The notes beneath the pieces were generated by a model. That model ran no database searches and was not told where the DNA came from. It worked only from the letters and a program-made list of their open reading frames with translations. Of a DNA stretch of 62,821 nucleotides, positions 1 to 48,899 are shown piece after piece; position 1 is the stretch's first letter; every line of letters starts with the position of its first letter. A program made the translations under genes and the position numbers. Source of the DNA: Tannerella sp. Lineage in GTDB: Bacteria; Bacteroidota; Bacteroidia; Bacteroidales; Tannerellaceae. The DNA is taken from contig JAISCL010000158.1 in NCBI GenBank assembly GCA_031265585.1, forward strand, positions 1-62,821, written 5' to 3'.

Positions 1-623
1 TCGCCACGCGTGTTCTCCCAGCAAAGGCAGAAATAGACGGTCTTTCCGCGCTCGTCTCCTTCAAATTCGAGGGTGAACGGTGTGTGTGAATCAAATGCGG
101 AATGAGTCAGATCGGCCACATTAACAATCGGTACGTCACTGATCACCCAGCGTATGACGGCTCCGCGCTGCCCCGCCGGCTTGGCTTTGGATTTCTTTTT
201 TCCCTGGTCGAAGAAGTGAATCTTAAGGCGGCGAATGATGCTGCTGTCAATGTCATAATCCGGATAAGTCGTAGCAATAGCCGCGGGCGTGTGCGTCGTT
301 TTGTGAATGGGCAGGCCCATGGCCGTGCGGTCTCCATCGTTTACAGCAGGGTTGTACGTGATGTATCCCTTAACATCTACCCGCACCGTGGCTTCGAGTT
401 CCTTGCGGGCTTCATTCTTTAATTCTATCGTCAGCTTTGTTCGCGTGGCAGGGTTTTCTGCCGCGTTGAGCTTGATTTCGAAAGATTCTTTCTGTGCGGA
501 CACTTTCGTGGCTTCCGTTTCCGGAAAGCCGAATCGCGTTAAGGACGTCATCAGGTAATTCAGGAATGTTGTTACCCAGGTTAGGAACGTTCTGTCATTT
601 TTTGGTAAATAATCTTTGCTCAT
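1..623 (-). CDS. Conserved hypothetical protein (predicted helical N-terminus, FN3/Ig-like C-terminus), runs off the window start; absent from the ORF track
   Basis: Manual translation from ATG 623: MSKDYLPKNDRTFLTWVTTFLNYL...NPATRTKLTIELKNEARKELE...YNPAVNDGDRTAMGLPIHK...KAKPAGQRGAVIRW...FDSHTPFTLEFEGDERGKTVYFCLCWENTRG; no stop in about 207 codons. Confidence 0.9.
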   Translation of the reverse strand, partial: MSKDYLPKNDRTFLTWVTTFLNYLMTSLTRFGFPETEATKVSAQKESFEIKLNAAENPATRTKLTIELKNEARKELEATVRVDVKGYITYNPAVNDGDRTAMGLPIHKTTHTPAAIATTYPDYDIDSSIIRRLKIHFFDQGKKKSKAKPAGQRGAVIRWVISDVPIVNVADLTHSAFDSHTPFTLEFEGDERGKTVYFCLCWENTRG

Positions 624-706
624 AGTTTATTGTTTTTATTGGTTTGGTGTTTATTGAAGTCTTTCAGGGCTTTACCCGAGGCGCATGAGCTTAAACCGGT
701 AATGCA

Positions 707-895
707 GGGAGTAAAGCCTGAAGACGCCGGAGCGTGTTCTGAAGACACCGGAGTAAGTCCCGGAGACACCGGAGTAAGTCCCGGAGCCATCGGAGCGTGT
801 CCCGGAGTCGTCGGAGTAAGTCCCGGAGTTGTCGGAGCGTGTCCCGGAGTCGTCGGAGCGTGTCCCGAAGGCGCCGGAGCTTGTCCCGAAGGCGT
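707..895. repeat. 21-bp tandem repeat array, 8 well-conserved units (728-895) plus degenerate flanking units (about 665-937)
   Basis: Units such as cggagtaagtcccggagacac and cggagcgtgtcccggagtcgt start at 728, 749, 770, 791, 812, 833, 854, 875. Confidence 0.95.
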
Positions 896-1257
896 TGAAT
901 TTAGCGATGTGATGCTCGGGGTGAAGCCTGCGGAATATATATCAAAACCCGTGGAAAAAATGCAGGTGTAATTTTTGGTGATGGAGTTGTCCGGTGTGCT
1001 GTAATTAAATGTGCGTGGACTGTCTGCCGCCGGACTGTAAAAAAACCGCGCCGGAAAAAACCCGGTACGGCTACATATATATAATGTATGAAATAAAGTA
1101 CATGAATTAGCATTTATAGAATGACTGTACTCTTTCCATTCCGCAAGATTCGCGGTGCACGACGATTCGACAGCAATTCGGCTGTCTTCGGTTACAAGGT
1201 GATGTGATTTATGTGTCATTCTTTTGAAAAATATACCGTTTTCTTTTGAAACAGTAG

Positions 1258-1265
1258 CAAAAGTA
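1258..1265 (-). promoter_or_regulatory. Bacteroidetes -7 promoter element (TAnnTTTG), candidate promoter for the 1-623 gene
   Basis: CAAAAGTA on + reads TACTTTTG on -. Confidence 0.45.
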
Positions 1266-32146: not shown

Positions 32147-32218
32147 CTTGTGTAGAGACTGACCGGGCGTATGGAATGTCTGTTATTGAGGTTCTATAAC
32201 GTTTTGTGCGGGTAATTT

Positions 32219-32402
32219 GCGGAGATGCGTCCGTAAATTGCGGACACGTGTCCATAAACTGCGGACACGCGTCCGTAAATCGCGGACACGCGTCCGCAAA
32301 TTGTGGACACGCGTCCGTAAATTGCGGACACGTGTCCGTAAATTGTGGACACGCGTCCGTAAATCGCGGACACGTGTCCGTAAATTGCGGAGACGCTCCG
32401 GA
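32219..32402. repeat. 21-bp palindromic tandem repeat array (8 full units and 1 degenerate unit)
   Basis: Consensus gcggacacgYgtccgtaaatt; units start at 32219, 32240, 32261, 32282, 32303, 32324, 32345, 32366, 32387. Confidence 0.97.
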
Positions 32403-41177: not shown

Positions 41178-41246
41178 TCATTGATCCGTAAGGCATTATA
41201 ATAAATATTTGAATTGTACCCGTAGCAATCACGGCCATGGTGGTCA

Positions 41247-41278
41247 AAAATCCCGTAAGGATGGCATGTCGGTAGGAT
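41247..41278. repeat. Copy of the atcccg..ggatg.catgtcggtag dispersed repeat also found at 1434-2110
   Basis: aaaatcccgtaaggatggcatgtcggtag vs aaaatcccatcgggatgatatgtcggtag at about 2076-2104. Confidence 0.65.
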
Positions 41279-41381
41279 TGTGGGCGTTCTTTATTTAACC
41301 TGAGTTCGAGATAAGATATGTTTTTTTGCTGTTTTTTTAGAGAAAAAACGGATGATGATATTTTTTATTTGGAAAATATAA

Positions 41382-41389
41382 TATATTTG
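41382..41389 (+). promoter_or_regulatory. -7 promoter element upstream of the third array and the truncated gene
   Basis: TATATTTG. Confidence 0.55.
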
Positions 41390-41488
41390 CAATCTAATTT
41401 TCAGCATTTTTATGTACTGTATTGAAAATAAATACTTATTCTGTTTAGAGCTAATTAACACGTTCGTGCCGGTTCGCTTTGGATACTT

Positions 41489-41572
41489 ATTTCGGGACGT
41501 CCCAAAACCATTTCGGGAAGCCCCAAACTCATTTCGGGACGCCCCAAATTCAAATGGGGGAGGCCCATTTTT
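41489..41572 (+). repeat. 21-bp palindromic tandem array (3 units and 1 divergent hairpin unit)
   Basis: atttcgggacgtcccaaaacc / atttcgggaagccccaaactc / atttcgggacgccccaaattc / aaatgggggaggcccattttt. Confidence 0.85.
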
Positions 41573-41622
41573 ATTCATTGAATCCCTAATAAACAAATCA
41601 TTAATATCAAAACTCAAAGACT

Positions 41623-41886
41623 ATGGCAGGACTGCATGACTGGTTGCCAAGTAACCATGAGGCGCTTATCAACAAGGCTACCCAGACAGTAACTTTTTTA
41701 ACGGCGGCGGTATTTGCGCGCATCGGTGTTGCGGGTGCAGCGCTGATGTGGTATCAGGATAAATTCATGATCAGGTATAACCGATTCAAGGCCGCTTTCG
41801 AGAACAGGAAGAATCCGGCAGAAAGGACGCCGGTTAAAACCACCGTTCTGCAGGAAACCAAAGAAGAATTTATAAAAGTGTACAGG
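41623..41886 (+). pseudogene. 3'-truncated homolog of the 1-623 protein
   Basis: Shares D[YW]LPxN, R[FI]G, NPAxRT and LxEx[RK]xE[LF] with the 1-623 protein; after KVYR the frame runs into a tRNA-trailer-like repeat. Confidence 0.75.
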
Positions 41887-41951
41887 ATACTCCACGGGTT
41901 AAAATTCAGGAGAATAAGGGTTTTTGCGTTGTGCAGTGCTTCTTATTTTTT
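41887..41951 (+). repeat. tRNA-less copy of a tRNA 3' end plus trailer/terminator (att-like scar)
   Basis: ATACTCCA equals the last 8 nt of tRNA-Ala; 41893-41951 matches 48840-48898 at 51 of 59 positions (hand count). Confidence 0.8.
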
Positions 41952-41975
41952 ATGTGCAGGAGTAAATTATTCATT

Positions 41976-48767: not shown

Positions 48768-48841
48768 GGTTCCGTAGCTCAGCTGGATAGAGCAACAGCC
48801 TTCTAAGCTGTGGGTCGAGCGTTCGAATCGCTCCGGAATCA
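48768..48841 (+). tRNA. tRNA-Arg(TCT)
   Basis: GGTTCCG/CGGAATC acceptor stem, ACAGC-CTTCTAA-GCTGT anticodon arm, GTTCGAAT; TAACTTTG promoter element at 48741. Confidence 0.97.
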
Positions 48842-48859
48842 CCGGTTAAATATCAGGGG

Positions 48860-48899
48860 AATAAGGGGTTTTGCGTTGTGTAGGGCCTCTTATTTTTTT
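48860..48899 (+). terminator. Intrinsic terminator after tRNA-Arg
   Basis: aataaggggttttgcg-ttg-tgtagggcctcttatt hairpin with G:U pairs, followed by a T run. Confidence 0.65.

Follow-up and report, generated by a model that had tools for sequence, protein, structure and literature searches.

The window, that is, the whole stretch of 62,821 nucleotides analysed here (contig JAISCL010000158.1 of Tannerella sp.), opens with a cassette at positions 1–1265. The cassette is a one-gene unit, built of a promoter-like element, an open leader frame with a 21-bp array and a gene for a helical-bundle/FN3 protein (Table 1). In the initial annotation a gene of at least 207 amino acids was placed at 623 (-), and an open reading frame from 623 to 3 is indeed seen there, cut by the contig end; whole relatives are 221–222 amino acids long and are called hypothetical where they are named (254 matches). 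The 8–13 units of 21 bp that were described ahead of the gene were also found, as eight clear and about five decayed units, and the array ends ~35–100 nt from the ATG. A period of 21 is detected over 708–895. The eight clear units, running from 888 to 721, have 14–21 of 21 bases identical to one unit; three decayed units down to 658 match at 5–10 of 21 and two upstream at 9–10 of 21. The TAnnTTTG element was correctly located at 1258–1265 (-), where the letters from 1265 to 1258 are TACTTTTG, and we take this motif to be the Bacteroidota -7 promoter consensus. The leader ORF from 1219 to 620 had been overlooked, as had the gene-less copies and the other periods of other families. In sequencing run X1, which may be the source sample, one contig covers 303–1091 with zero differences. 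Between the cassette and an mltF-like gene, the regions 1500–1860 and 1930–2120 carry GTAGGGGC...GCCCCTAC-type palindromes, presumably REP-like, together with G/T-rich repeats; this zone has a high multi-copy cover in contigs. In three relatives the neighbour of the mltF-like gene is a gene that we take, from its sequence, to be a DEAD-box-like helicase gene, with no cassette between the two.

Table 1. Features of the two cassettes and of the lone array, in window coordinates
Feature	Position	Strand	Remarks
Helical-bundle + FN3 protein gene	3..623	(-)	207 aa present; last 14 codons lost at contig end
Leader ORF, 199 codons, spanning the array; stop overlaps gene ATG	620..1219	(-)	Open in three paralogous leaders; peptide not codon-conserved
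21-bp array core, 8 units	721..888	(-)	Decayed in-register units out to ~658 and ~930
TAnnTTTG element, 39 nt ahead of leader ATG	1258..1265	(-)	Seen in the sequence; putative function
Gene-less 21-bp array, 9 units	32212..32400	(.)	Between bactofilin gene and convergent gene
TAnnTTTG element of second cassette (TATATTTG)	41382..41389	(+)	Seen in the sequence
Leader ORF of second cassette, 75 codons, spans array, overlaps gene start	41412..41639	(+)	
Short 21-bp array, ~3.5 units	41489..41567	(+)	Similar unit both gene-linked and gene-less in genome G041
Truncated family gene: N-terminal helical part, then unrelated sequence	41623..41889	(+)	

The same layout had been claimed to recur at 41382–41886. 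The element, the array and the gene do exist there, but the array has only ~3.5 units, of a different sequence, and the gene matches the family profile solely at positions 4–83 of 221 (E 8.9e-7), with the likeness lost after ~88 codons; it is therefore a truncated copy. Two repeats lie around this second cassette. A dispersed element of ~60 nt at 41222–41290 is also found near cassettes on contigs C124, C290 and C48 and at other sites, and could mark a hot spot for insertions or be a small mobile element in its own right. A short repeat at 41893–41970, after the break in the gene, is shared with contig C149 and with 48840–48898, and the latter copy flanks a tRNA gene at 48768–48841. The third array, which had been reported at 32219 as related, is present as nine units at 32212–32400, but it is only loosely like the first and no family gene adjoins it. 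The spacer that holds it measures 318 nt here and 0–58 nt in 18 of 19 syntenic loci (array absent from 18 relatives). A unit resembling this array precedes a family gene in genome G007. Genome G041 has a unit that is linked to a gene once and occurs at four loci with no family gene.

The protein family is a large one and falls into 5,904 clusters when a 50% identity threshold is applied. The helical/FN3-like character that was first suggested for the protein is supported by structure prediction and fold comparison: in the full-length model of paralogue P0004 (pLDDT 97) a proline-rich linker joins a three-helix bundle to an FN3 domain. The FN3 domain has a structural match with a Z of 11.7 (rmsd 2.4, 96 aligned) and the helical part resembles generic bundles (Z 9.1, rmsd 2.8, 88 aligned). 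The view that this protein type is unannotated also stands, as neither a family model nor a recognisable catalytic family was found in Pfam, NCBIfam, PHROGs or PADLOC. Its supposed expansion in termite-gut bacteria agrees with the record titles of relatives and with the number of matches, which reaches 33 in a single genome of the genus, and an Atlas cluster whose commonest phylum is Spirochaetota matches the N-terminal domain (TM 0.91). No solved relative was found by sequence, viral contigs, phages and plasmids yielded no relatives at the sensitivity of the searches, and there is no Pfam match to an HU domain in ten family members or in the window protein. The N-terminus has no signal peptide in its sequence; the window protein is cytoplasmic. 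Among the fold-search matches listed there is no known DNA-binding fold, which does not thereby exclude such a fold. The proteins are not basic, with a net charge of ~0 in both halves and a median pI of 6.7 (104 proteins); conserved basic residues are found on helix 3 (K69, R73, R81), with some more within the FN3 domain. A homodimer prediction scored 0.00, which counts neither for nor against. The family gene is under purifying selection, judging from mismatches that fall 27/19/70 by codon position. It has no conserved neighbour gene (158 neighbours fall into 143 clusters), and proteins that are 55–59% identical are found in different phyla. Two family members (L038 and L072) occur in Geminisphaera colitermitum TAV2. 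In a phylum-wide draw of 300 other genomes, two had the family at E 1e-8; of its four loci there two have clear 21-bp arrays and two have arrays that look decayed by eye.

That array and gene form a recurring cassette, as the initial annotation had inferred, is borne out by the homologues. From 126 loci fetched, 105 distinct genes with a start were obtained, 84 of them with at least 350 nt upstream and three of these 84 from the source genome. A lag-21 array ends within 300 nt of the ATG in 76 of the 84 loci, which is the upstream enrichment that had been suggested as a check, compared with 34 of 2907 ORFs of the source genome; an earlier control gave 31 of 734 ORFs, on contigs that were picked for having an array. 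By record title, the pairing is seen in 60/64 loci of Bacteroidota, in 12/13 of Planctomycetota/Verrucomicrobiota and in 4/7 from metagenomes. Because the loci are kin and best-scoring matches, these counts are not independent. An unbiased scan of periods 12–59 found 21 upstream of 81 family genes, 42 upstream of seven and none upstream of six (n=94), and the same scan downstream found nothing in 94 of 97. One paralogue has a 20-bp array, and the loci on contigs C151 and C282 have no array. One family member (L269, at 11947–12291 of contig C363 in the source genome) has a 17-copy 20-bp array, with similar gene-less copies on C37, C151 and C248. The TAnnTTTG motif occurs upstream in 32/49 homologue loci on the sense strand and in 23/49 on the antisense strand, so that across homologues a promoter role is weakly indicated.

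The period itself follows the protein family. The source genome (G000) contains 156 arrays of period 20, 21, 22, 23, 41 or 42. Since 54 of them have period 21 and the genome has no array of period 17, 19, 24, 25 or 26, a period of 21 is no chance result. Clustering the neighbours of the 156 arrays sorted the arrays by gene family, and each family was then represented by the best 30 loci of a search that ignored the arrays, together with order-wide draws, with short flanks omitted. Upstream of DUF6261 genes a period of 41 or 42 was found in 22 of 29 loci (one locus has a distant 21-mer) and, in the order-wide draw, in 18 of 29 with no other period. For the HU family PF14848+DUF4469 the arrays are downstream, with periods of 22, 23 or 46 in 17 of 23 loci and in 9 of 14 in the order-wide draw, and none are upstream (0/27 and 0/13). 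HU-HIG genes have periods of 22 or 23 downstream in 10/28 and upstream in 5/28 (15/56 flanks). Crossing of periods between families is nearly nil, amounting to the one DUF6261 locus with a 21-mer, although kin loci are not independent. The period is thus set by the gene family, at 21 for helical-FN3, 41/42 for DUF6261, 23 for HU-plus-DUF4469 and 22–23 for HU-HIG. As each family has its own fixed-length repeat, the protein likely reads the repeat by spacing and DNA shape. HU-type domains occur in two of these array-carrying families, which makes DNA binding the simplest reading for the whole class, and by analogy with the HU families the window protein may bind DNA as well. A doubled domain as the reason for the 42-bp period is unsupported, as no homology was found between helical-FN3, DUF6261 and a second 21-bp family (hhalign probability <1%). 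The latter is an unnamed family of 243 amino acids (L258:860-1591 and L259; C48 and C255 in the source genome) that has 21-bp arrays downstream, gene-less array copies on C316 and C243 and no significant Pfam match. Apart from the intergenic arrays, coding 21-bp repeats are seen in the source genome at gene ends on C100, C118, C11, C334, C81 and C67:14389, in genes that we presume to be of the Rpn-type PD-(D/E)XK kind.

The open leader is a general tendency as well. Among 58 loci with 400 nt upstream, an ATG-frame spans the array in 43 in the sense direction and in 18 in the antisense, against 22.8 ± 3.3 and 21.6 ± 3.0 in shuffles, and in 33 the leader frame extends as far as the gene start, compared with 8.5 and 8.3 in shuffles. 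DUF6261 leaders, 41-bp arrays included, follow the same trend in 13 of 18. One possible option is that the protein's target is the array RNA of its own leader, where the bound protein would block the ribosomes of the leader ORF and uncouple translation of the gene. These sense frames would be expected from such a feedback, and in every family the arrays are found on that side of the gene which is probably transcribed. Yet the signal is weaker in a strand-symmetric stop-free control (31 vs 18 loci, p 0.03) than in the shuffle test, and an open leader may merely guard any long leader against polarity; taken with the folding evidence on the units given below, we consider this option unlikely. Another option is that the leader ORF yields a functional peptide of 7-residue repeats that pairs with the helical bundle. 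It draws on 21 bp being seven codons, on the frame being kept open and on indels between paralogous leaders that total multiples of three. It seems hardly credible, however, as variants within the arrays have no synonymous bias (the share is flat at 0.28–0.32 in all six frames), mismatches in the leader are spread evenly over the codon positions (16/19/18), each of the three possible frames relative to the gene occurs (15/11/8) and the 20- and 41-bp arrays break the heptad. Because the codon pattern is flat, the indels keep the frame and any frame is used, it is likely the passage of ribosomes through the leader, by putative translation, that counts, and not the peptide. The flat codon pattern also leaves no conserved sensing codons of a leader-peptide attenuator, and a general attenuator is not enriched, with terminator-like sites in 7/59 leaders and in 5/59 antisense. 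A hairpin with a T run lies at 1051–1065 (-) within the leader frame of the window, and similar hairpins are seen in the leaders on C208 and C124; the hairpin alone is not above chance and is not general among leaders.

What the units keep can be seen by comparing many arrays. Below 70% protein identity the units are alike at 9.5–10 of 21 positions against 9.2 in shuffles, and because this is near chance, the exact sequence is not what is kept. Length is kept, and so is a dyad: of 10 dyad positions 6.39 pair in the 67 strongest arrays, against 5.45 ± 0.10 when shuffled. In the same arrays purine runs and then pyrimidine runs recur every 10.5 bp, with a power of z 10.6 (z 9.0 against palindrome-keeping shuffles), TT and AA are enriched and TA and TG are depleted. 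The DUF6261 42-mers have a 10.5-bp harmonic too (z 7.6). The units of all families have the dyad; the 10.5-bp rhythm occurs only in helical families and is absent from HU-family units. An R5Y5 pattern is described for bendable nucleosome DNA in PMC3097165, and we infer from the alternation of runs that the rhythm of the arrays is of this type.

In the initial annotation each unit was read as a small hairpin, and the repeats were suggested to be either a structured RNA or phased protein-binding sites. The hairpin and the structured RNA are not supported: array RNA of the window folds no better than shuffles (z -1.04), the sense strand folds better than the antisense in just 31 of 67 arrays, there is no Rfam match, and the dyad mismatches of the 67 arrays have no strand preference or G-U bias (G.T 50 vs A.C 58). 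As there is no G.U bias, neither strand folds better and the window array folds like shuffles, the dyad is a symmetry of duplex DNA. The same results count against the RNA feedback in the leader, and so does the 10.5-bp rhythm, which is the repeat of B-DNA. Phased protein-binding sites on DNA fit the dyad, the 10.5-bp rhythm and the family-specific period, the binding being putative. The array axis, taken mod 21, is not phase-locked to the ATG (R 0.07, p 0.74; the best of ten tests gave p 0.039) and no phase lock to the TAnnTTTG element is seen either (35 loci, p 0.93). There is no polar decay of the arrays, the 5' and 3' flanks being equal (p 0.32).

Many arrays stand without a gene. Of the 156 arrays in the source genome, nine are coding repeats, 42 have a family gene within 650 nt and 105 do not. 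At a threshold of ≥75%, a match among the gene-linked units exists for 12 of 37 gene-less 20/21-mers (0 of 370 shuffles) and for 16 of 38 gene-less 41-mers, the latter count being made too high by a single array, which probably does no more than lie next to a gene scrap. The unit of the window cassette recurs gene-less on contig C193. Besides the 32212 site, two further sites are empty in relatives (2–57 vs 147 nt; 46–59 vs 179 nt) and two other array sites are shorter in relatives. The copies vary, some keeping leader or gene scraps of varied length and others beginning and finishing at the array, and whole-cassette decay and array-only copying probably both occur. A gene-less 21-bp family of the source genome, on C127, C220, C225, C243:9891, C321, C149, C366, C183 and C45, has common flanks of 20–80 nt that shorten from the outer ends and an inner unit that differs; no intact parent gene was identified for it. 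A search for empty sites of the C193 array returned paralogues only, no relatives with both flanks were found for the C149 and C69 arrays, and no joints skipping arrays were found among the listed contigs of runs X1–X3.

The matching gene-less units and the empty sites, together with the 55–59% identical proteins in different phyla and the lack of a conserved neighbour, would suit a protein that promotes the duplication or insertion of fixed-length units, so that cassette and arrays are selfish and bring no benefit to the host. Such an activity can be compatible with DNA binding. Against it, the protein belongs to no recognisable catalytic family, the HU-type partners are not known enzymes, no period-20/21 array has an 11-base inverted repeat between its 200-nt flanks (0/56), and no clear target duplication was found at array sites, where the spacers of relatives are too diverged; gene-less arrays with leader or gene scraps also look like the decay of whole cassettes. 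We regard this explanation as improbable. The arrays could also be neutral minisatellites: slippage in a long leader would create them, and they would hitch-hike, some of them within MITEs. Their units turn over fast, the source genome has 14 DDE_Tnp_1 matches, and according to PMC4596501 the 23- and 41-nt arrays of P. gingivalis form part of IS5-type MITEs. Slippage, however, predicts neither a family-fixed period, nor a fixed side of the gene, nor a dyad and 10.5-bp pattern in unrelated units, and neutrality is quite a poor explanation.

The mechanism that we favour, with a probability of about 0.5, is DNA binding: the protein would recognise its own array by spacing and shape, restrain its own expression from the leader and encounter more sites scattered over the chromosome. 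The protein would read the two-turn spacing, the dyad symmetry and the purine/pyrimidine bend pattern of the duplex array and not its exact sequence, and protomers would align every two helical turns along one face of the DNA. Within the transcribed leader, a bound array would be a road-block by which the gene's expression is curbed. Keeping the leader open would let ribosomes travel on to the gene start, with no importance attached to the peptide, and the chromosome-wide copies of the array would offer further binding sites, for local DNA compaction or for titration. Several points stand against the reading as DNA. Wherever the gene can be traced, the array lies within the probable transcript, in the leader here and just after the stop for the HU families, which an RNA model explains equally well. 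One HU-Ig structure was argued by Burroughs et al. to be unlikely to bind DNA (PMC5499826), a view that weighs here together with the non-basic proteins, the missing phase lock and the HU units that have no 10.5-bp rhythm.

More tentatively, and short of an even chance, the families may form a class of one-gene elements, each with its own DNA ruler (helical-FN3 21, DUF6261 41–42, HU-Ig 23 and HU-HIG 22–23 bp), in which the protein would polymerise on phased, bendable, sequence-free arrays and seeded copies would build a lineage-specific chromatin-like layer. If this is true, both the constant-length bacterial repeats and the Porphyromonas 22-, 23- and 41-nt repeats would have their proteins named, and arrays that are read by shape, with a nucleosome-like bend, would be a new kind of bacterial protein–DNA element. 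Why unrelated bacterial tandem repeats hold a fixed length is posed as an open question in PMC8161180, and for the expanded HU-HIG proteins a role is so far only proposed in PMC5499826. A period that follows the family gives each repeat class a candidate protein, so that both questions become testable.

We compared the cassette with known systems. Unlike a CRISPR array, its units are head-to-tail without spacers, with no conserved neighbour and no Rfam match. It differs from REP/RAYT in having no conserved neighbour as well, and the lone Y1_Tnp fragment of the source genome is on another contig. With a leader-peptide attenuator it shares an enriched open leader frame, putatively translated; sensing codons and a terminator were not found. 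The iterons of plasmid Rep proteins and the parC/ParR system have tandem, helically spaced sites that adjoin the gene of the likely binder, with possible self-repression. The cassette has such sites beside the gene of a candidate binder, and may repress itself, but it is chromosomal, has no Rep, ParA or ParM partner, is free in sequence and has many distant copies.

The HU-HIG clade of Bacteroidota is described as solo genes with lineage-specific expansion and fast divergence, and a role in conflict was proposed for it (Burroughs et al., PMC5499826). Our genes are likewise solo, expanded and divergent, one HU-HIG subclade has an Ig-like C-terminal domain, and arrays are seen here beside both; the window protein, in contrast, has a helical bundle where HU-HIG has HU. 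The main text of that paper uses 'repeat' once, for a protein domain, and describes the expansion of HU-HIG without arrays. In Porphyromonas gingivalis the minisatellite MITEs BrickBuilt (23-nt) and MITEPgRS/464 (41-nt) are described together with 22-nt repeats (PMC4596501). Like our arrays, these have periods of 22, 23 and 41 in Bacteroidales, intergenic copies, filled and empty sites, and a leader and tail that grow shorter from the outside inwards. They differ in their IS5-type inverted ends, which the 20/21-bp arrays here lack, and the text of PMC4596501 links them to no parent gene family.

The closest parallel is found in the 20–21-nt tandem repeats of bacteria, which have a constant size, a variable sequence and an intergenic position and form species-specific families (Subirana and Messeguer, PMC8161180). 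Their authors noted that the length is two helical turns and suggested an unknown polymerising protein, and fixed-length 20–21-nt repeats are described without a partner in PMC6749651 also. The arrays studied here share with those of PMC8161180 the 20–21-nt length, the unrelated unit sequences and the several unit families per genome, and they encode no amino-acid repeats, as the absent synonymous bias indicates, although an open leader frame crosses many of them. The fixed-length repeats are thus known in print; a link of arrays to a gene family was not found in the open-access literature searched, and within that literature the dependence of the period on the gene family is new. We rate the cassette as a new kind of element, with a proposed mechanism. 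What sets it apart from the repeats described in PMC8161180 is that here the array is tied to a gene family, that other families go with other periods, and that a dyad and a 10.5-bp pattern were measured.
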